A stretch of DNA of 63,529 bases, filler included, from Thraustochytrium aureum (lineage: Eukaryota), in NCBI GenBank assembly GCA_012862495.1. It is 5 parts of 4 records of this genome, joined end to end, with 100 filler letters (N's around TTAATTAATTAA, not from the genome) between each part and the next. Parts side by side here need not be neighbours in the genome. Positions count along the whole stretch, not along the records: positions 21,405 to 45,074 come from BLSG01000269.1; 4 more parts are not named here. One strand, 5' to 3'. Shown here piece after piece: positions 26,819 to 45,130 of this stretch. The notes under the pieces are model-generated. The model did not search any database, was not told where the DNA came from, and was given only the letters and a program-made list of their open reading frames with translations. Every line of letters begins with the position of its first letter. Positions within the stretch are counted from its first letter, which is position 1. The position numbers and the translations under genes are program-made.

Positions 26819-29800
26819 ATGTCGCTGCGGCCAAAGTTGAGGAGCTTCGAGGAGGACCTCGAGGCGTTTGAGGCTGGCAAGCTTCAAGGCGCTGCTCGAA
26901 TTGTTGCTGCGAACGCCGCGGATGGGCCGGGCCGGGTGCGGGTGCGGGATCTGGCTCCGACGGCTGAGGATGGCTCTGCCTCGGCTTCGAAGGACGTGCA
27001 CGGTGGACGGGACGAAGTCGAGGAGCGCGACGATGTTGTGCAAGGCAGGCTAGCTCGCGGCAGACGCGTCACGTTCGACTTACCCTGTGAAGATGATGAT
27101 CCGGAGGCGCGCTTAGACTTGCACGACGAAATGCAGAGCATCAGCGGGATCTTGCACGGGATTTCGGAACGCGAGCGCAACGAAGTCCTCCCTGCGATGT
27201 TCCTGGGTCGGCGTCCAGCGCAGCCAACCGGTTTTCCGTCGACTTTTTCTGCCACGCCTGCGAAGGGGACTCAGCCTTTAAACGGGCAGGGCGCAGTTGA
27301 GACCGGGAACTCCAGGACGCCCGAAGCCGAGAACGAATCTCCCCCTCAACGGCCCATGTCCCTATTCAAACAACGGATGCTAGAAAAGCGAGGCGAGCTG
27401 CCCAGCAGAACCTCTGCCAGCAGAACCTCTGCTGGAGGCGAGAAGGCCACTGTGCATGCAGCCCCGCGAGGCGCATCGCCGTCACCCCCTCGACCTACAA
27501 CAACAGCAAGCGTTTCGAGCGAGATCGGTCAGGGCGCAAACCTTGAGCAAATGTCAGCAAGCGAGATCGCCGCGGCACAGCTTGAGATTCGCCAGACGTT
27601 TAGCCCGCAGGTCCTCGAAGCGTTCATGGCAAAGTTCGGGACAAAGCAGGCCAGCCCCAGCGCGCCAGCCGCGCCAAATACCCGGCCTTTAGTAGACCCT
27701 GCAGCTGTCCCTGCGTCAGATCGGTCCAGTGCGTCCCGCGTTCAAGACTTGTCGTGGATTCGGTCCGAAGAAGACCTGGACAAGGCGGTGAACGACCTGC
27801 TTCCAGACCTGGAGAAGGAGAAGCTGCGTTGGACCGGCAAGGTGACTGCGCCTCAAGGAGGGCTCGAGACCGGCGCCGCGCCGCGGGAAGCGGCGTTTCC
27901 AAAGGACAGCGTGAGTGCGATGCTAGAGTCACATGGGTACAAGCCGTCATCGGAGAAGCAACGCTTCGACCTCGAGGGCGACCTGGTTCGCGCCGACGCG
28001 GCGCCCGGGGAGGAATCAACACCATCGCAATCTGCGCTCTATCACCATGGCGACGACCCGGACTCTGCTGGGTACACGCTGAGTGAACTCGTTCAACTAG
28101 CGCGGAGTAAAGCACCAGCGCAGCAGGCGCTTGCGCTGTCGTGCCTCGAGAAAATACTTGACAAGCGGCACGCGGCGCTTTATGCCCAGCCGTCGCGGCA
28201 CCCCCTCTTCTCCCTGCCCATCCAGCTGCCAATGGTGCTTCGGGTCGCAATTGACGGCAGCAATTCTACAGCAGTAACCGCTGCGGTTCGAGCGCTAGCA
28301 GCCTTCCTCGTGCCGGCCACGTTGCTGAGGGATATCGCATTTGCGTGGCGGTGCCTGTCTGGCAGCGCCTTGGTGCTTCCTCCGAAAGTGCCGCGCGCTC
28401 AGGGGGCGGCCGCGGTTTTCGGCCCGGCTCTCGATGACGAGCCGGCATATGATGCTGACCAGGTCGATGAGAGCGACCCGACAGCCCAGCCTCCGACAGA
28501 CCCCGAGCTCATCCAAGGTTCTCCCGTGTACGGCTTGATCCACACCGGCCTGATAGATCGGATAGCTTTCCTTGTGGGTTCCAGGTCGCACCTCGCTGCT
28601 GGAGTGACGCTCGGTCCTGGCGGTGAAGTAGCTTGCCTTCGCATCTTGACGCATGTTGTGCTGCACTCGAACGACGGGCTGGAGGCGGTTCTGGCAGACG
28701 GCAAACTCATCGCTTGGCTCGCTGCCCGCAGTCGGACTGCCTTGGCCGACCTACGCGACGGCCGCCAGGCGGAGGCCGCGGCTGTGTTTAATGTGCTAGC
28801 TGTTTTGGCGGCCGCGCGGGCTGATGTGGCGCGCACCCTCGCTTCTTCGCCTGGAGGTGCTCTCGTTGCCGCTGTCGCAGAGGCCACCTTGCCTCCGTTC
28901 CGCTCAACTTCGGCGTATTCTCTTGCAAGGGTGCTCGCGGCCTGCGGCCACGCTGAGGCCCTCCAATTGGTGGCCGCCCAAGACGCCCCATCGCTTAGCA
29001 CATTGAGTGAACGTGGCGAGCCTGCGGCGCTGGCCTTAGTTCTTGCTCAGGCCGTGGACTCGCTGACGCCTGAACAGGTGGCGGCTTGGGCGGATCACTT
29101 TCGCCGCTTGCCAAGCGCCCCGCGGCATGCGGGCCCAGCCAGCTTCCTTGCTGCTGTCGTGAGAGCTACTTTGCAGCTACCTGCGGTCGAAGTTTGTGGG
29201 GCCGTCGAAGCCGACCTCGCGGTGGTATGGAGCGCCGCGGCTGCGGTACCGGAAGCCTGCGTTGGCTCTGACATCGACCGTGACTTGGATCGCACGTGCC
29301 AGACTTTTGCAGCGTGGCTCGGGGAAGAACTGGAGGCTGCCCAGGCGCATGATTCGCAGGTGCAATGGTCGGTTGCGCAGGTCGACCGCCTTGCTGCGCT
29401 GCTGGACCTCGGCCTTGCCCTTGCGAGCTCGGAGCCTTTGCGCCGGCGCCTCGGGCAGCTGCTGGCCAAGCTCGGTCATCGGTCCCGCCTGCGGGCGCTT
29501 CTCGTTGCCGAACGACTCGAGCTCGAGTCTGGCGTATCTCCAGAGCTCTCGTTTGTGGCTCTCTGTTGGGCCCGAGCTCGCTCTCTCGCTACGCTTCGCG
29601 CTTCCCGACTCCTCGTTCGCCTGTTCGGCTCAGTGCGTGCGCCGGCCGCCGGCCAGGGCTCGCAAGCTGCAGAGTTGGCGGCACGCCGGAAGGCGCTGTG
29701 CAACGCGATGCCGAGCGCGCCGCACCTGGCGGGCCTGGAGGCGCTAGCGCGATCCATCGTCTCCGCGCTCTACGCCCCGGGCCTTGGGCCTGTTCGGGCA

Positions 29801-30848
29801 AGAAGACCGGTCTGGGCCAACCAGGGTGAAGGAGGCCTTGCTGGACGCGCTGTGGGAGCCTTTGCTCGGTGAAGCTGGCGCCCTCGGTTCGTTGCGCATC
29901 GGCTTTGACCCCAGTGCGAGTCTGCGTCGCGACGAGAAGGCTGAAGGGCGGCTTGCGAGAATATGGGGGGCGCATTGGGCCGCCGCTCGAAGTGCTTGGC
30001 CCCTCCTCCCAGCACGGGCGGCTGTGGGCCCGGGGGGGCGCCCCTCCTCGCGGCGGCCTTGGATGCTGCGGCCACCTTGATGCGCGATGGTGGCATGGGC
30101 CCAGCAGATGTTGTTCTGCAGCTAGCTAGGCTACTTGCAGACCACAACGGTCCACGGGCCATGTTCGACGAGAGCTGCTCGCGTCGCATGAACCAACTTG
30201 TCGACCTCGCGCTGGACGGGCTGCTCCCCGACCCAGCCGAGCCTCCAAGCGCACACCGGCCGCAACAAGGGGCGTGGGTTGACGCCTTAGTATGCGCTGC
30301 TGGAGGCCGCGCCCAGCTGTTGAGCTTGTGGCAGAAGCTGATCGTCGCCTTCAACGAGCGACTCAATGGGCACGAGACAGCCGTCGCTCTTCTGCTGTTG
30401 GCGTTTCGCGCAGACAGCGACGAAGAGCTGCGACTCATTGCCTGGACCGACCTGCACGGGGCAAATTTGCTAGGCCTCCTGGAGCTACCGCGCTTGAGCC
30501 CTGTTGCTGCCCTTGAGGGCGACCTCGATGCATTCAAGCGCCCAGCAGAGACAAGCTTGGAGACTGTTCAGTGCATGGCGCACGCCCTCGCGCAACGCAC
30601 CTTGGGGAAGGGCAAGAACCCGTTCCTGACAGGGGTGGCGGTGTCGCACCTCGCGGCCTATTTGTGGCAAAGTGGCCCGCTGTCGTGGAATCGCATGCGC
30701 ATCCTCAAGCACTTGGCCCTCGATGGGGCATACTGGGACGTCTGCACAACATTGCCAGACGGGGCTGTCTACCTTGGCCCAGGCGGCGTCCCCCGCCCAC
30801 ACCCTCATGCTGTGGAGTCGATGCGTACTCTCGCGCGACAGGACCCGG
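26819..30848 (+). CDS. RPAP1: RNA polymerase II-associated protein 1 (partial; frameshifts near 29790 and 30000)
   Basis: LEQMSASEIAAAQLEI (RPAP1_N), EKEKLRWT, RFDLEG, LYHHGDDPDSAGYTLSELVQLARSKAPAQQALAL (RPAP1_C), then a long helical region continuing in ORF 29963.. Confidence 0.85.
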
Positions 30849-31217
30849 NNNNNNNNNNNNNNNNNNNNNNNNNNNNNNNNNNNNNNNNNNNNNNNNNNNN
30901 NNNNNNNNNNNNNNNNNNNNNNNNNNNNNNNNNNNNNNNNNNNNNNNNNNNNNNNNNNNNNNNNNNNNNNNNNNNNNNNNNNNNNNNNNNNNNNNNNNNN
31001 NNNNNNNNNNNNNNNNNNNNNNNNNNNNNNNNNNNNNNNNNNNNNNNNNNNNNNNNNNNNNNNNNNNNNNNNNNNNNNNNNNNNNNNNNTTGGCTCCATC
31101 CCAGGAAGAAGCATCGCCCTTGCCGGCGTGCGTTTGCTCCATCCCAGGAAGAAGCATCGCCCTTGCTGGAGCGGCGCGTTCTCGCACAGCTCGATGCGTA
31201 TGTACCGGTTGTAGACT

Positions 31218-32659
31218 TCAGATCACAAAAACTGTTCGCGACGAGAGCCGGCTTGGTTCGAGCAGGAACGTGTACTCACCGACACGCATCTTGCCGGACG
31301 CTTCCGCCGTCCGCGTTTGCACCTGTCCAAGCGGAAGCACGTTATCACGAGTGGCAGAGTCTTGAGCGACCTGGTTCTCAGACAAGTTCAATTCGCTTTC
31401 GATGGAGCGCGAGGCCACTCGGGGAGTCCCACCAGAGCTTTCTGGCGACCGCCGAACCTCTTGCACCTCCCGCCACAGCCTAGCGTTCTCTGCCTCAAGC
31501 GCTTCCCGGTCTTCCAGCTCCTGATGCAGTCTCTCGGTCTCCTTGGTGAGATCCGCAAGACGAGTATTCGCCGCTTCGAGCATTTCCAGCTCCGCAAGGT
31601 GAGCAGGGGCCTGCGCTTGGGATCTACGTTCGGACGTGACAGCTGAAACTGAACCCTGACGAGCCCCGTCCAGTTCCCGTCGTGCATGCGAGCAAGAGCG
31701 AATCGCGCTGTCTTCTGCGCAGCAGCAGCTGCAACAAGACGGCGGGTCTGATCCTGGAGAGCTTCTACCGTTCTGGCGAGGTGGTTTTCCACGAGCCGCA
31801 TCGCCTCACACTCGTGCTCTAGGTCCCTCGCGACCTCTGCCGCACTGTCCCGCTCGCCTTGAAGGCGTGCGTTCTCCGATTTGAGCGTCCTTTTCTCTGC
31901 GAGGAGCGAGTTGAGTTGGAGCTCGATAGATTGATTTTCGAAGCGTAGAGCCTCGATCTCGTTCTCGTGGCTAAGGCAGAGCCGGCGGAAGTCGTCCTTG
32001 GAGGCCACTTCGCCGTGCTCTGAGTGGCGGCCAAGAGCTGCTGCGGAGGAAGAGGGGACTAGCTCTGTCTCCTGTTGCCCTTGGACGACCAGGGAATCGT
32101 CCCTTCCTGAGAGACCCAGACCGTTCAGAGGCCCATCTGCAAGCGATTCGCTCAACGATGCATTCTCCTGCTTGAGCTTTTGAAGCTCGCCCTCGAGTTG
32201 CGCCGCGTAGTCAATGAGCAAGAGCGTCAAGTTCTCGTCGTTCCCGGCTGGAAAAATTCCAGGGCCGGATTTGAACGACCCGACGGAAACCGCGCTGCCA
32301 TCGCCCGAGCGCAAGTCCCGCGTGTGTCCTTCTTCGAGGTAAATGTCGAGGTCCAACCCCTCAAGTTTGCTTAGGGCCGACTCGGCGGACTTTGCTGAAG
32401 TAGGTCCACTCCTGGGGCTGAGCGATGGTAGCGCGGCCGGGGAAGGAATGTCTTGGTCATCCCTGGAAGCCCTGGTCGATCCCGACTCTGGGCTCTGAGG
32501 CGCAGATTTCAGCAGATTACCCCCCTCGGGAGTCGCGCTTTGGTCCACAGCAGCGTGTACAGCAACAGCTGTTCCAGCAGCAGCACTGCCAAGCGGTCAT
32601 GCGGCGGCGACTTGCGCCGCCGCGTCGCCGGCCCCGCGTTTTGACGCGTCCCAGGTGAC
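31218..32659 (-). CDS. Coiled-coil protein, partial, with a frame change near 31600-31700
   Basis: Heptad-rich stretches (ENEIEALRFENQSIELQLNSLLAEKRTLKSENARLQGE; LEAANTRLADLTKETERLHQELE) in ORFs 31388..32548 and 31218..31583. Confidence 0.55.
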
Positions 32660-34561: not shown

Positions 34562-36250
34562 ATGTCCAACCCATTGCATGTTGATCAGACCGTGTACACC
34601 TCGTTCCTGTTCGTGGCCATCTTGAGCACCCTTCTGACGGCGTTCTACTTTGTGCAATGGCGCCAAGGACGATGCAACACTCACCCTTTGTACGTGCAAG
34701 CCGTCACGGCGGTGGTCTACAGCATGAGCGCTGCCGGATACGGAGGCTTTGTCTTCAGTAGCATCAAGTTTGACGACGGCTCGTTCGTGGCGGTTCCCAT
34801 CGCGCGGTACCTCTTCTGGGTGATGACTTGCCCGGTGATTCTCGCAGGCTTCATCTCCCTCTTGCACTACCGCGACCCAACCAAGCAGGACATTAATCGC
34901 ACAGTGTTCATTGTGGTCAAGGATTTGGTTGTCATGTGCTTTGGCGTGCTCGCTGCCATTCAAGCGCCAGGGCTCATGAAAATCTCGCTTCTCGTTGTCT
35001 CGTTTTCCGTCAGCTTTTGGCTCCTTACAGACATGTTTCTGATTGTCCGCGAGCGCTCGGCGGACTTTGACGGACGACTTTGGACGTGGCTCTCGATGGT
35101 CTGCGCGCTGTTCTTGACCAGTTGGCTCATCTTCCCGTTGCTCTACGTGCTTGGGCCGCCCGGGTACGACGCGATCACTCGCGAGGGCGACGCAATCGGG
35201 CACGCCATCGGCGACCTCATTGCCAAGGACGTTTTCGGCTTTATCGTGTGGTACTTTCGCTTCAACGTTGTGATTCCGCACAAGAAGGAGCTAGACCGAC
35301 AGGAGGCCAAGGACGCAGCGGAGGAAGTGAGCGAGTTTGGTCTGCTCATCAGCAACAAGCAAACGCTGGACGCCAAGGACAACGGACCAATGAAGGTGCT
35401 CGAGTACCACGGCACGGTTCTCGTCATTGAGCCCGAGCCGCACATCCAGCGACTCCTAATGTATGTTCTTGAGGAGGCCCGGCTTCGTCCCGTCTGTGTT
35501 TTTGACTTTCAGCAGGCTAGGGCTGTGCTGCGCCGCGGCCGCATGGACGAGTACAGCGCTGTGTTCCTCAACTTGGACTATGCGGTGAGCCACTTTGCAG
35601 ATGCTCGCGGAGCGATGAGCACGTTCAACAACGCGCCAGTCTCGACTCCGATTCTCGGGTTCAAGCTCGGCGCCACAGCAAACCCGCTAGTGGAGCGAGA
35701 ACTCGCTGATCCGCAGCTCTGCAACGCCGTTCACGAGTACACGATGGATGCGCGCAGCACCGTTGCTCTCGTCAAGTTCTGGGAGCAAACCGCCGCCACC
35801 TGGCGGAAGCGCGCAAGAGCACTTGACGAAGAAGCTGCTCTGCACAGCATGCCGTTCAACCCCGTCTCCGTCGGCAACTCGTACGGCCTCAACCGTTCGC
35901 CGCTTCGGGTTCGCAATTCGTTCTCGCTAGCCCCCAGCAACCAGCAAAGTCCTTCTACGCCGCAGCTCGCAATCGACACCGGAATTTCGCCGGCCGGCAC
36001 ACCGCAGCCGACCAGTGCAAGGTCGTCTGTTTCAAAGCCCAACTTCACCACGAGCCCCGTCGGCGATGTTCCAGACACGGTTTGCCTTTGTAACGCAGCA
36101 GGTTGCTCTCGCACAGCGACGATGCAGTGCGGCGCCTGCAAACTCGACCCCGCCATGTACTGCTCGCGAGAGTGTCAGCTTGCGGCGTGGAGTTCGCACA
36201 AGGGCAGCTGCGGCGGCACAACGCCCAGCGCGGCACTTGCTCTTGTCTGA
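34562..36250 (+). CDS. Channelrhodopsin-like protein A (probable anion channelrhodopsin) fused to a pseudo-receiver domain and a MYND zinc finger
   Basis: 7 TM; TM3 ARYLFWVMTCPVIL, TM4 KDLVVMCFG, TM6 SWLIFPLLYVLGP, TM7 GHAIGDLIAKDVFG (retinal Lys codon 35225-35227); receiver-like VLVIEPEPHIQRLLMYVL...AVFLNL...PILGF; C-terminal CNAAGC..QCGAC..YCSRECQLAAWSSHKGSC. First ATG is at 34562. Confidence 0.92.
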   Translation: MSNPLHVDQTVYTSFLFVAILSTLLTAFYFVQWRQGRCNTHPLYVQAVTAVVYSMSAAGYGGFVFSSIKFDDGSFVAVPIARYLFWVMTCPVILAGFISLLHYRDPTKQDINRTVFIVVKDLVVMCFGVLAAIQAPGLMKISLLVVSFSVSFWLLTDMFLIVRERSADFDGRLWTWLSMVCALFLTSWLIFPLLYVLGPPGYDAITREGDAIGHAIGDLIAKDVFGFIVWYFRFNVVIPHKKELDRQEAKDAAEEVSEFGLLISNKQTLDAKDNGPMKVLEYHGTVLVIEPEPHIQRLLMYVLEEARLRPVCVFDFQQARAVLRRGRMDEYSAVFLNLDYAVSHFADARGAMSTFNNAPVSTPILGFKLGATANPLVERELADPQLCNAVHEYTMDARSTVALVKFWEQTAATWRKRARALDEEAALHSMPFNPVSVGNSYGLNRSPLRVRNSFSLAPSNQQSPSTPQLAIDTGISPAGTPQPTSARSSVSKPNFTTSPVGDVPDTVCLCNAAGCSRTATMQCGACKLDPAMYCSRECQLAAWSSHKGSCGGTTPSAALALV

Positions 36251-37278: not shown

Positions 37279-38472
37279 ATGGGGATCCGAATCGCGGCAG
37301 CGGCGTTGGCCGCCGCGGCAGCCGCCGCAACACCAAGCTTTGCTGCTGGCAGCTTCCATTCGACAATGACCGTCACGGCCACAGCTTTCGAGGACCTCGA
37401 ATTCGACAAACGGTTCGAGTTCGGCGACCTTGTCGTCGATCCTCCGGGCCTCCTTGAGCGGTTCATCTTCGCGGCCGGATCGGCGTGCGAGATCCGGTAC
37501 ACCGCGCTTCCATGGGTGGTAAACTGCGAGGTCGATGTCGCGATCGCCATGGACAACTCTACGTTCAACAACGGCGAGCCAGTCGTGTTCCAGGCCTTTG
37601 TCGGCGCCGTGTTCTCGCAGAGCGTCGTTAATGGTGACACGGACAGCAACTTGGAGATTCGCTACGGTGTGACAACGCCGAAGATCGACCTCAACCTGAA
37701 ATGGGCCGAGGCGTTCGGGCTTGACCTGAACGTGCCCTCCTACACGTTTCCGCCCGACGCGGACCAGATTGGCCTGCAGGTGCCGCTCGGGCTGGTCTCC
37801 AATGGCGTCTGCTTGGCAGAGAACCTCCCAGAACTCGCGAGTTTGCTCATCGCCGTCAACCCCCAGCTCCGCGTCGCAGCAGAGGCCATCGACAAGATCT
37901 CCGACATCACCGGGACCGACATTTGCGCCAAGTTGGCTGAACTCGTGATTGCCGAGGACGGCACTCCAGGCGTGGCGCTGAAGATGGTCGTGTCGCTTCA
38001 CTTCCTGGATGAGGCGCTGATGGATGAGCTCAACCCAGCGGCGCGCGCGCTGGTTGTTCAGCTCCGCAACGCCTTGCTCAAACGCGACTCAGGGATTGTC
38101 TTGTCAGCTGACTTGGGCAAGCTCATCTTTGACAGACTCTCTGGGAAGTCAGAGCTGGCCGGCACGACAGCGGACACTTTGGATGGCGTCCTCGACAAGA
38201 ACGGTACATTCCTCTTCGGCTCGTTCACGCAGCTTGCCTCGGACGACAAGTTGACTCCTGGGTCGCCAGAGTCGCCCGAGGCCACCGAGGGGGAGCTCTC
38301 CCTTGTCGGACCGCTTGTGGGGACCGGCGTGGTTTTGGCGCTTGCGGCTCTGGCAAGTGTGGCGTTTGTGCGCGCTCGGCGCGCCAAGCAGCAGAACGAA
38401 TCAGTCGACCCCATGCAAGACCCCGTGGCCCACCGGGTTCAAGTTGCCAACCCGCGCTGGGGCACGGTTTGA
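37279..38472 (+). CDS. Uncharacterised type I single-pass membrane protein
   Basis: Signal peptide MGIRIAAAALAAAAAAATPSFA, about 330-aa ectodomain with 4 Cys, TM LVGPLVGTGVVLALAALASVAFV followed by RARRAK, short tail. Confidence 0.75.
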   Translation: MGIRIAAAALAAAAAAATPSFAAGSFHSTMTVTATAFEDLEFDKRFEFGDLVVDPPGLLERFIFAAGSACEIRYTALPWVVNCEVDVAIAMDNSTFNNGEPVVFQAFVGAVFSQSVVNGDTDSNLEIRYGVTTPKIDLNLKWAEAFGLDLNVPSYTFPPDADQIGLQVPLGLVSNGVCLAENLPELASLLIAVNPQLRVAAEAIDKISDITGTDICAKLAELVIAEDGTPGVALKMVVSLHFLDEALMDELNPAARALVVQLRNALLKRDSGIVLSADLGKLIFDRLSGKSELAGTTADTLDGVLDKNGTFLFGSFTQLASDDKLTPGSPESPEATEGELSLVGPLVGTGVVLALAALASVAFVRARRAKQQNESVDPMQDPVAHRVQVANPRWGTV

Positions 38473-38870: not shown

Positions 38871-40724
38871 TCAGGCCCCGTTGCGCAGCGTGGCACACTC
38901 TCGCTTGTGGGTTTCGCGCCAGTCCCTGACCTGGCAGTCACGGCCGCAGTACGCGCGTTGGTGGCACGCGCCGCACTGCATCTGGGCTCGGCTAAAGCAC
39001 CCACTTGCGCTGCACGTCTCCATTGGCAAGCTTGTTCCGGGCACTGTCAGTCTGGCATCAAAGGCGTTGTTCGCTCTCGGTGGCGACGCGGGCTGCTGCT
39101 CGGGCGTTAAACTACCACCACTTTGCTGCTGCAGCAGCTGCTGCTGCTGGCGCTCATTGAATTTTGTGTAGTCTGGGTTGCGTGGTGACTGCGACGGGTC
39201 GTACCAACGGCGGAAAGGGTCGTCAGTGTCGATAAGCGCTGCGTGCGAGGCGTGTCGGTCTAGCATGCCACTGCCTTGTGGCACCTCAAGGCTCGGCGGC
39301 TCGGTTGAGAACTGGGACGAGCCGGACTGGACCCTGTGAAGAGAGTTGGGTTGAAATATCACCCCACGCAGGTCTTGGTCCAGAGGTGCGGACTGTGAGT
39401 TGAACGACATTCTTCGGGCCTGCGACATCGCCGCTTCGCCGCCATTTCCAATCATGAGCTGCTCCTCCTCCTCGGAGGTCATCGCAGCGCGGCGCCAAAT
39501 GTCGCTTGTCTTGCGCCAATGGCGCACGAGGCGGCTAATGTACCGTTCATCGAGCAAGTGCATCATGGTTGCGTGGCACAGGTGGCGGTCCTCTGTTTCT
39601 TGCTCCATTAGCTTTTCGTCGTCCGTGCCGTTGGTGTAGCCGAGGATGGGGAAATGGTACGGGCGCTTTGAAAACACCTTCTTGAACTGGGAGGCCCCTT
39701 GACGGTTGTCAAACTGGTGGTGGAGGTTGACGAGGACAGCATCGAACTCGTCGAGGCGGCTTCGCAAGATGATCTGCTTTGCTTGGTCCAGGCTAAAAGC
39801 GAGGACAGTGTTGAGCCCAACCTCGCCGAGCATGTACATGAACAGGCGTTGGTATCCCACGTCGGGCTCCACAATGAGCACCGAGCCGACTACCTTGTTC
39901 TTGGACGGCTTGGAGCGACCTGCAGCCGGGTCTGGGCCGTTGTACTGGAGCTTTTTGGACTTGGCGACGCTGCCTGGCATGGGGACAATCGCGGCCTTGG
40001 CCTCCTCGCCTTCAATGAACGGGTAGATGATTCCGTAGCGCAAGTACCAGCACGCAAACCCAAACATGTTCTTGGCAAGCAGGTCGCCGATAGCGTGCCC
40101 GATGGCTTCACCCTCCGTGCTGATGATATCAAGTACGGGAGGGCCCAAGAAGTACAGGATTGGGAAGATGAACCAACTCGCAAAGAAGAGACAAGTAACT
40201 CCGACGAGCACGTGCCAAAGGTGACCTGGGTAAGAGTCCTTGCGCATCAGCTCCAAATGCACCGTCTCGTAGACGAGGGACAGGCTCACGCACAGGGCAA
40301 TCGACAGAAAAACACCCTTCCAAACCGGCGAGGACTGGAACGACGCAACAACACCAGCAGCCATGAGGACGAGGTCCCGAGTCACGATGAAGTTGATCTT
40401 GGTGAAAGAGATACGCGGCCCGAGCAAACCTATGGTCTGGAAGAAGCCCATGAGCATCGTCGGGCAGGTAATCATCCACGACATGTAGCGGCCGATGGCG
40501 ACAGGGCGGGCGCCGTCAGGGAAGACAATTGTTGCAAAGATGAATTCGCCTGCTCCGAAGGCAGTGAGCGTGTACACGATTGCGGTCACGCCTTGCACGT
40601 ACAACGGGTAGAGCAGGCAGCGACCTCGGCGGTACATGACCGCGTAGAAGCAGAAGAGCGAGCATGACGTGATTACGACGAGAAGGCTAGCCGCGAACGC
40701 GCCAGCGCCCTGCTCGAGCCCCAT
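38871..40724 (-). CDS. Channelrhodopsin-like protein B (probable anion channelrhodopsin) fused to a pseudo-receiver domain and a MYND zinc finger
   Basis: TM3 GRYMSWMITCPTML, TM4 RDLVLMAAG, TM6 SWFIFPILYFLGP, TM7 GHAIGDLLAKNMFG (Lys codon 40073-40071); VLIVEPDVGYQRLFMYML...FDAVLVNL...PILGYT; CSASGC..QCGAC..YCGRDCQVRDWRETHKREC. Confidence 0.92.
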   Translation of the reverse strand: MGLEQGAGAFAASLLVVITSCSLFCFYAVMYRRGRCLLYPLYVQGVTAIVYTLTAFGAGEFIFATIVFPDGARPVAIGRYMSWMITCPTMLMGFFQTIGLLGPRISFTKINFIVTRDLVLMAAGVVASFQSSPVWKGVFLSIALCVSLSLVYETVHLELMRKDSYPGHLWHVLVGVTCLFFASWFIFPILYFLGPPVLDIISTEGEAIGHAIGDLLAKNMFGFACWYLRYGIIYPFIEGEEAKAAIVPMPGSVAKSKKLQYNGPDPAAGRSKPSKNKVVGSVLIVEPDVGYQRLFMYMLGEVGLNTVLAFSLDQAKQIILRSRLDEFDAVLVNLHHQFDNRQGASQFKKVFSKRPYHFPILGYTNGTDDEKLMEQETEDRHLCHATMMHLLDERYISRLVRHWRKTSDIWRRAAMTSEEEEQLMIGNGGEAAMSQARRMSFNSQSAPLDQDLRGVIFQPNSLHRVQSGSSQFSTEPPSLEVPQGSGMLDRHASHAALIDTDDPFRRWYDPSQSPRNPDYTKFNERQQQQLLQQQSGGSLTPEQQPASPPRANNAFDARLTVPGTSLPMETCSASGCFSRAQMQCGACHQRAYCGRDCQVRDWRETHKRECATLRNGA

Positions 40725-41674: not shown

Positions 41675-43130
41675 TCAAGGGGAAAGCGCTGGAGTGGGCG
41701 GCAAGTCGCCCCGAGTCTCGGGGAGTCGAAAATAGACGAATGCCGAGCAAAAGGCCCCGATGCAGCTGAGCGCGAAAAACGTCGGCGCCGGCCCGATCGC
41801 GTTGTCAACTACTGGAAATCCGAACGAGACGCAGATGTTGAAGACCCAGCAGGCCACGTTGGTGAACACGAGCGCCTTCGGGCGGACAAGGCGGGGAAAC
41901 GTCTCCGAGGCCATCAAGAAGAACAGCGAGCCAGGGCCGATCTCAAAGAAGAAAATGAAGCCCATGAGCGCCGCGATCGTCACAAAAGCTCTAATCCCTC
42001 CCGCAGCGTCCTGCAAAAATGCGCTCCCGCCTGCTAGGACAAGCGACGACGCGGTCATGCCGACGAGGGCGGACAGCATGAGCGGCCTGCGCCCGAGGCG
42101 GTCGACAAGCAAGGTCGCCACGAAGACCGAGACAAAGTTCCAGGCACCAATAACGGCGACCGTCAGCGCGAGCACGTTGTGGAATCCAGCGTCCTTGAAT
42201 ATCTGCGGGCTGTAGAATATAATGGCGTTGATCCCGGTGAGCTGTGCAGAGCAAGCGAGCCCCAAGCCGATGCCTGCCCACTCGAGGCCCTGTCGAGTCA
42301 TCAGCAGCTTGCGCCACGTGTACGCTTTGCTCGCGCCACCCCGTCTTGCGCCTCGGCAGTCTCCTCCTCTTGCAACAGCCGATCTGCAACGGTCTCGTCG
42401 GCTTGGCCGTTCTCGTCCTGCAGACCATGCGAGCCTTCCGCGCCGCCAGGCGCACCAGCCCGCGCCCGGCGGGGCCCTGCAGCCTCCCAGTCCGAAGGAT
42501 CCAGTCCGAAGACTCTTGGAACCCTAACAGCGCGTGAAGAATCATAACAGCGGCAGGCACGGCTCCGAGGCTGAGCTGCAGGCGCCATTTCCACGGCTCG
42601 ACGCACATGTGGTCCACGTCGCTTGGCGTGAAATCCGGGTCAAAGGCCAAGTTGAGCGCCTGCGCGAGCAAAATCGAAAAGCAGATTGCTATTTGGAACA
42701 CGGTCCCCACCGAGCCGCGACGAGCGGGCTCGCACACTTCCGTGACGTAGAGCGGGCAGAGGACCGAAACGCCTCCAACGGGCACCCCCGTCAGCGTGCG
42801 CAAGAGCACGGCCAGCCAGAACGAATCCGCCGCCCCCAGCGCCGCGGCAAGCAGACCGGCGGCCCCGCAGGCCAAGTAAGCCTTCCGCCGTCCGAAGTGG
42901 TCAGCAAACGGCACGCCAACAATCGCGCCAGCAATGCCCCCGACCAAAATGCTCGCCGTGAACATCCCGCTCAGCGCCGCCTGCTCCGCGTCCGCCTCTG
43001 GCTCCATCGGCACGCTCGGAAAGAAGTGGCACTGCACCATCGAGCTGGTCAGCCCGCTCACGACGGCCGAGTTGTACCCAAAGTACGTCCCAGCCGCAAG
43101 GCTCATCAAAATCGCATGGCGCTGCGACAT
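41675..43130 (-). CDS. MFS sugar porter family transporter; frameshift(s) near 42300-42490
   Basis: FGYNSAVVSG, ADHFGRRK, PLYVTEVCEPARRG, QLTGINAIIFYSPQIF, VDRLGRRPL, LPETRG. Confidence 0.9.
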
Positions 43131-45118: not shown

Positions 45119-45130
45119 TTAATTAATTAA
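45119..45130. other. Artificial scaffold linker
   Basis: TTAATTAATTAA within Ns. Confidence 0.95.

Follow-up and report, generated by a model that had tools for sequence, protein, structure and literature searches.

Two linked channelrhodopsin genes of Thraustochytrium aureum: old paralogs by sequence, with a predicted blue/green split

The window analysed here is a stretch of 63,529 nucleotides from the thraustochytrid Thraustochytrium aureum (assembly GCA_012862495.1). It contains two channelrhodopsin genes, called A and B below. They are convergent, and the 2.6 kb that separates them holds one ORF for which Pfam gives no match:

34562-36250, plus strand: rhodopsin A, an ORF of 562 aa with the domain layout of B; ortholog of SaACR2.
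37279-38472, plus strand: intervening, unrelated ORF of 397 aa; no Pfam match.
40724-38871, minus strand: rhodopsin B, an ORF of 617 aa with a seven-transmembrane channelrhodopsin, an Asp-less receiver domain, a disordered linker and a MYND finger.

Neither rhodopsin ORF is interrupted or contains N, and Pfam finds Bac_rhodopsin and zf-MYND in both. The nearest solved structures by sequence and fold are channelrhodopsins, and the AlphaFold model is best matched to channelrhodopsins. By eye, the product of the intervening ORF has a hydrophobic, signal-peptide-like N-terminus and a C-terminal hydrophobic segment.

Judged by sequence, both proteins are already catalogued anion channelrhodopsins (ACRs) of the Labyrinthulea. 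Residues 1-300 of B are identical by eye to TaACR1 of T. aureum, and residues 1-300 of A to TaACR2; no difference was seen across the 300 listed residues. These two proteins occupy rows 333-334 of Data Set S1 of PMC8406140 (cited throughout from the portion available), where 300 aa are given and the entry under testing reads 'Tested? N'. The same data set holds a third paralog, TaACR3, with Phe at the site of bacteriorhodopsin (BR) D85. A third rhodopsin was not found in the window, 14% of which is N; tblastn gives two rhodopsins only.

The sequence-only reading had pointed to the counterion site, the position of BR D85, and its residue calls hold. In B, positions 40490-40461 (minus strand) encode RYMSWMITCP. 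This aligns to RYAEWLLTCP of C1C2 and places Ser82 (codon TCG, 40481-40479) opposite the Glu at the D85 site. Paralog A has Phe there, as had been claimed: it reads RYLFWVMTCP, with Phe85 at 34814-34816 (plus strand), and Phe is also present in ACR1, ACR2 and SaACR2. The residue after the retinal Lys differs as well, being Asn219 in B (40070-40068, minus strand) and Asp223 in A (35228-35230, plus strand). The other sites compared here, as located by translation and alignment or, for the ring sites, in a site table, are as follows:

[quoted passage not shown]
35213..35230, plus strand: A Asp218 (BR D212 site), Lys222 (retinal Lys) and Asp223, which replaces the central-gate Asn.
40068..40085, minus strand: B Asp214 (BR D212 site), Lys218 (retinal Lys) and Asn219 (central-gate Asn).
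40293..40298, minus strand: B Ala143/Leu144 near the beta-ionone ring, Ala plus an aliphatic residue as in the ACR3 branch.

The ring sites of A and B presumably correspond to BR S141/T142, by the C1C2 alignment and BR numbering. G152S is among the changes that red-shift GtACR2, and G152 presumably occupies the BR S141 site.

The likeness of B to the cryptophyte protein GtACR1 was also correctly noted. As far as the sources at hand go, GtACR1 has Ser at the D85 site and so does GtACR2 (Ser93), the two forming a green/blue pair with different gating. Ser at this site is common, not unusual. Among the matches listed (153 rows), the 124 rows with R..W aligned carry Ser in 31 cases, Gly in 33, Glu in 30 and Phe in 8. 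In Data Set S1 of PMC8406140, P1ACR1 has Ser, SaACR3 has Ala, the ACR3 rows have Val or Ile, and the ACR1, ACR2 and SaACR2 rows have Phe. Two further Labyrinthulea paralogs in our collection, P0010 and P0013, have Asn.

Both A and B keep the marks of Labyrinthulea ACRs: the retinal Lys, the Asp at the D212 site, the Cys/Asp DC pair and a neutral D85 site. Such family marks, the neutral D85 site included, have been described in the RubyACR preprint (10.1101/2020.04.15.043158). The second transmembrane helix (TM2) has no Glu in 14 of 14 Labyrinthulea rows among the matches listed, and the E68/E90 site is Thr in A and B. In contrast, GtACR1 and GtACR2 belong to a separate family that keeps Glu68 and Glu64, respectively, in TM2.

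Ser82, Phe85 and Asp223 were looked up in Logan contigs. Ser82 of B is confirmed by record 7 of X1 and record 16 of X2 (two runs of one study), Phe85 of A by record 2 of X1, and Asp223 of A by record 10 of X2, at a depth of 4.5 with no other letters. Because the same letters recur in contigs of two runs, Ser82, Phe85 and Asp223 are unlikely to be assembly errors. The Logan contigs also reveal 24 coding variants, some of them on one low-depth contig; 6 further variants upstream of the start of A were left out of this count. Within the two rhodopsin domains all 11 coding variants are synonymous, and in the rest of the ORFs (the tails) 6 of 13 are non-synonymous. Contigs of three runs cover both rhodopsin ORFs and not the stretch between them; the runs are presumed to be RNA, and we do not read this coverage as transcription.

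Homologs were gathered by three word-index searches (1, 0 and 3 matches) and an HMMER search (best 150 of 351). No shorter homologs were found among 1732 candidates. Comparison by eye with the catalogue gave names to five rows: SaACR3 (P0003), SaACR2 with a few residues different (P0004), HfACR3 (P0005), HfACR1 (P0011) and an AlACR2-like protein (P0012). P0005 and P0011 have Hondaea accessions. The rhodopsin-domain tree was built from 25 of the 153 rows, taking the top matches and a spread of distant rows and leaving out the remainder. A second tree, of 18 rows, used rhodopsin and receiver together. AlACR1, AlACR3, P1ACR1-3 and TaACR3 are absent from both. A Labyrinthulea clade of 14 rows, which holds A, B, HfACR1, HfACR3, SaACR2 and the AlACR2-like row, is recovered in each (99/99 and 99/96).

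Genes that lie so close together, face each other and share a domain layout could have arisen by a recent local duplication, after which the change between Phe and Ser at the counterion site would have made a two-colour pair. This account, in essence that of the sequence-only reading, is highly improbable. The rhodopsin domains of A and B share 43% identity, and for each gene an ortholog from a different genus is closer: SaACR3 of Schizochytrium aggregatum for B (56%) and SaACR2 of the same species for A (59%). In the rhodopsin-domain tree, SaACR2 is the partner of A (100/99) and SaACR3 that of B (99/95); the second tree agrees (100/98 for B with SaACR3). When A and B are forced together as sisters, the tree becomes 85 log units worse (p-AU 2.45e-05). 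They are therefore not sister paralogs but fall apart in the phylogeny, the outcome that the earlier reading had itself named as counting against it. Furthermore, the same codon is used at 91 of 196 identical aligned residues, compared with 85.6 expected from codon usage, which is chance level; synonymous sites between A and B are saturated. The ortholog pairing, the AU test and the saturated sites together identify A and B, on the sequences, as old paralogs whose duplication predates the split from S. aggregatum. Recent duplication is refuted.

The one-to-one orthologs of S. aggregatum share the layout with the MYND finger, and SaACR2, which the catalogue lists as functional, shares Phe at the D85 site with A. 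At two sites the orthologs differ from A and B: Ser82 of B is replaced by Ala in SaACR3, and Asp223 of A by Asn in SaACR2.

A block in TM6-7 of A and B is 75% identical over 158 bases, and gene conversion was considered as its source. The block has the same codon at 19 of 32 positions, compared with 14.5 expected. Because this excess is weak and codon sharing is at chance level overall, gene conversion was not accepted.

Scans of metagenome contigs and viral contigs for synteny elsewhere found no relative. In the homolog collection, the Labyrinthulea ACR paralogs P0007, P0008 and P0013 have one value, 136917, as the length of their longest contig, and the value for P0010 is 136521, a hint that several paralogs lie on one contig in another organism. 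Another row, P0009, is a Labyrinthulea-type ACR that lies beside the AlACR2-like row in the tree; its 12 kb contig is assigned to the dinoflagellate Durusdinium trenchii. It may reflect thraustochytrid contamination or transfer.

The retinal pockets of A and B suggest different colours. Since B has Ala and Leu at the ring sites like the ACR3 branch, A has Ser and Phe like AlACR2 and SaACR2, and the Tyr/Gln/Ile of RubyACRs is missing from both, B is predicted to absorb in the blue, at about 480-500 nm, and A in the green, at about 520-545 nm. Both ranges are carried over from paralogs that are 34-46% identical (46% between B and HfACR3, 37% between A and the AlACR2-like row). The three paralogs of Aurantiochytrium limacinum peak at 485, 545 and 590 nm; AlACR3 is the one at 485 nm, and AlACR2, with Phe at the D85 site, absorbs at 525-545 nm (10.1101/2020.04.15.043158).

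The blue assignment of B draws on its place in the trees, where the pair of B and SaACR3 joins HfACR3 and P0006 (86/93), and the B branch again joins HfACR3 in the second tree (85/89). AlACR3 and HfACR3 resemble B in their non-aromatic D85 site and in the Ala plus aliphatic ring sites, and HfACR3 has the MYND finger. They differ from B in having Val at the D85 site and Gly rather than Ala before the retinal Lys. The apparent weak points of treating B as ACR3-like are this Ala and the joining link, which is not starred. The pocket of A was also compared with that of the RubyACRs. AlACR1 and HfACR1, which absorb at 590-610 nm, share with A the Phe at the D85 site, a residue that B lacks and that also occurs in non-Ruby rows of the ACR2 type. 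At the Ruby pocket positions Tyr171/Gln213/Ile217, however, A has Phe/Trp/Pro and B has Leu/Trp/Pro. Among the 35 rows of the site table, Tyr/Gln/Ile occurs in P0011 (HfACR1) only, a protein that lacks the MYND finger.

Of the spectral split that had been proposed, the split itself is thus likely, given the position of B near the ACR3 branch, the green-type pocket of A and the splits measured in A. limacinum. The role given to the F/S site fares less well. In Labyrinthulea ACRs colour does depend on the D85 site, but a substitution at Phe108 of AlACR1 displaced the peak by 10 nm, compared with 20 and 15 nm when two residues on the ring side were replaced (10.1101/2020.04.15.043158). GtACR1 and GtACR2, at about 510 and about 470 nm, are separated by about 40-50 nm although both have Ser at this site, so that their colour split comes from other sites (PMC10147648 and PMC13187731, in the parts available). 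On both counts, the F/S difference probably does not account for most of the tuning. The gap between A and B would instead arise from several pocket sites acting jointly, with Phe or Ser at the D85 site and Ser/Phe or Ala/Leu at the ring sites. The preprint 10.1101/2020.04.15.043158 writes F108W, and AlACR3 in Data Set S1 of PMC8406140 has Val.

Another way in which the two proteins may differ is the central gate. Asn after the retinal Lys is indeed the usual channelrhodopsin form, as the sequence-only reading had stated: it is found in 123 of the 148 Lys-aligned rows among the matches listed. Asp is found in 1 of the 148, and that row is A; its ortholog SaACR2 has Asn. For the residue after the retinal Lys, the text of the preprint 10.1101/2020.04.15.043158 has Gln, and the sequences available in Data Set S1 of PMC8406140 have Asn.

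Asp223 may alter or abolish the anion conductance of A. In a pore whose TM2 has no Glu, this Asp may take the place that Glu68 has in GtACR1, alter the kinetics or let cations leak. In C1C2 the equivalent mutation, N297D, increased PCa/PNa, which went from 0.29 to 0.51 (PMC11379304). In GtACR1 the residue is N239, part of the central gate, and the channel closes faster with N239Q (PMC13230924). These results, together with the rarity of Asp223 and its confirmation by an independent contig, speak for the idea that A is no ordinary anion channel. Its carboxylate, in a pore free of Glu, would cause a cation or proton leak, odd kinetics or a nearly non-conducting state, with B as the working ACR. 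On the other hand, A keeps every other ACR mark. GtACR1, in the material seen, conducts anions with the carboxylate of Glu68 in the same gate, which a protonated Asp could match, and the change could be a lineage-specific neutral or mildly harmful one. We consider it unlikely that A departs from anion conduction in this way, and a substantial functional change from Asp223 is unlikely to the same degree. Less likely still is a more elaborate arrangement, in which A would be cation- or proton-permeable or changed in gating beside a blue anion channel B. Zoospores would then respond with opposite sign to green and blue light, both proteins being docked to partners through their MYND fingers. In any case, Asp223 of A is a natural probe of anion selectivity in a Glu-free channelrhodopsin pore.

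Downstream of the rhodopsin domain, each protein has two further modules:

35411..35806, plus strand: A receiver-like domain, by alignment, with Asn337 at the phospho-acceptor position; no Pfam match of its own.
36089..36211, plus strand: A C-terminal zf-MYND finger, Pfam E 6.6e-07.
39495..39890, minus strand: B receiver-like domain, about residues 279-410, with Asn333 at the phospho-acceptor position, by model and fold match.
38895..39014, minus strand: B C-terminal zf-MYND finger, Pfam E 1.7e-07, above the curated cut-off.

The model of the B receiver has a pLDDT of 94, and its top matches are NtrX, MicA and PhoB. In the alignment, the response-regulator residues Asp57 and Lys109 are replaced or missing: the former is Asn333 in B and Asn337 in A, and no Lys follows strand 5. 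An Asp-less receiver with the same residue pattern has already been described for labyrinthulean channelrhodopsins, in the accessible text of 10.1101/2020.04.15.042127. The paralog P0008 has Asp at the phospho-acceptor site.

The MYND finger occurs in 6 of 14 Labyrinthulea rows among the matches listed, namely A, B, SaACR2, SaACR3, HfACR3 and P0006. HfACR1 and the AlACR2-like row are among the eight without it, one of which is truncated. With the 18 rows of the second tree, a single clade of the six MYND-bearing rows is not rejected (p-AU 0.263), nor is it established. Within the full-text literature searched, which excludes subscription papers and online catalogues, no description of a MYND finger on channelrhodopsins or other microbial rhodopsins was found. 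The Hondaea ACR3 record at NCBI is named 'Programmed cell death protein 2', probably because of its MYND finger. A receiver that cannot be phosphorylated would act in localisation or as a scaffold, and so would a MYND finger. The finger marks a subset of Labyrinthulea ACRs and could point to the placement or coupling of the receptor in zoospores.

Taken together, A and B are probably old thraustochytrid ACR paralogs that function in zoospores as two distinct chloride channels gated by light, with B predicted to be the blue and A the green member. Isomerisation of retinal would open the anion pore, and the resulting anion current would change the membrane potential and so steer zoospore phototaxis. 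Photocurrents were recorded from all seven Labyrinthulea homologs tested, and the family is described as anion-selective by the authors; AlACR2 gave a residual channel current only (10.1101/2020.04.15.043158). In Data Set S1 of PMC8406140, SaACR2, AlACR2 and AlACR3 are listed as functional, with selectivity marked as not confirmed. The three ACR proteins of A. limacinum fall after zoospore settlement, significantly for AlACR1 only (PMC12221091), and a review, PMC8818676, refers to phototaxis in zoospores of labyrinthulomycetes.

The sequence-only reading had also raised the possibility of heterodimers, for which no support was found. Genomic linkage might aid co-expression of A and B, and fungal rhodopsin cyclases are described, in the excerpts available, as forming heterodimers of paralogs with different chromophore tuning. 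But the Labyrinthulea ACRs that have been tested, the ortholog of A included, carry currents when expressed alone. A and B also converge on each other across a third gene and have no common promoter. A functional A/B heterodimer is very unlikely, and separate channels are the preferred reading.

By comparison with characterised family members, a blue/green split is already known for Labyrinthulea ACRs. The significance of the question as originally posed is small: both proteins already have catalogue entries, and measurements from 2020 cover blue/green/red sets of ACR paralogs within single thraustochytrids. The A/B pair is nonetheless a cheap patch-clamp target.

A few other features of the window were observed. 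The gene at 41675-43130 (minus strand), which we take from its translation to be sugar-transporter-like, is split over two overlapping frames near 42300, as a frameshift, a short intron or an assembly error would produce. The gene at 26819-31483 (plus strand), presumably encoding an RPAP1-like protein, seemingly consists of two ORFs with a break at about 29870-29960. Finally, the 12 bases at 45119-45130, ttaattaattaa, lie between two runs of N and are likely a scaffolding linker rather than biology.
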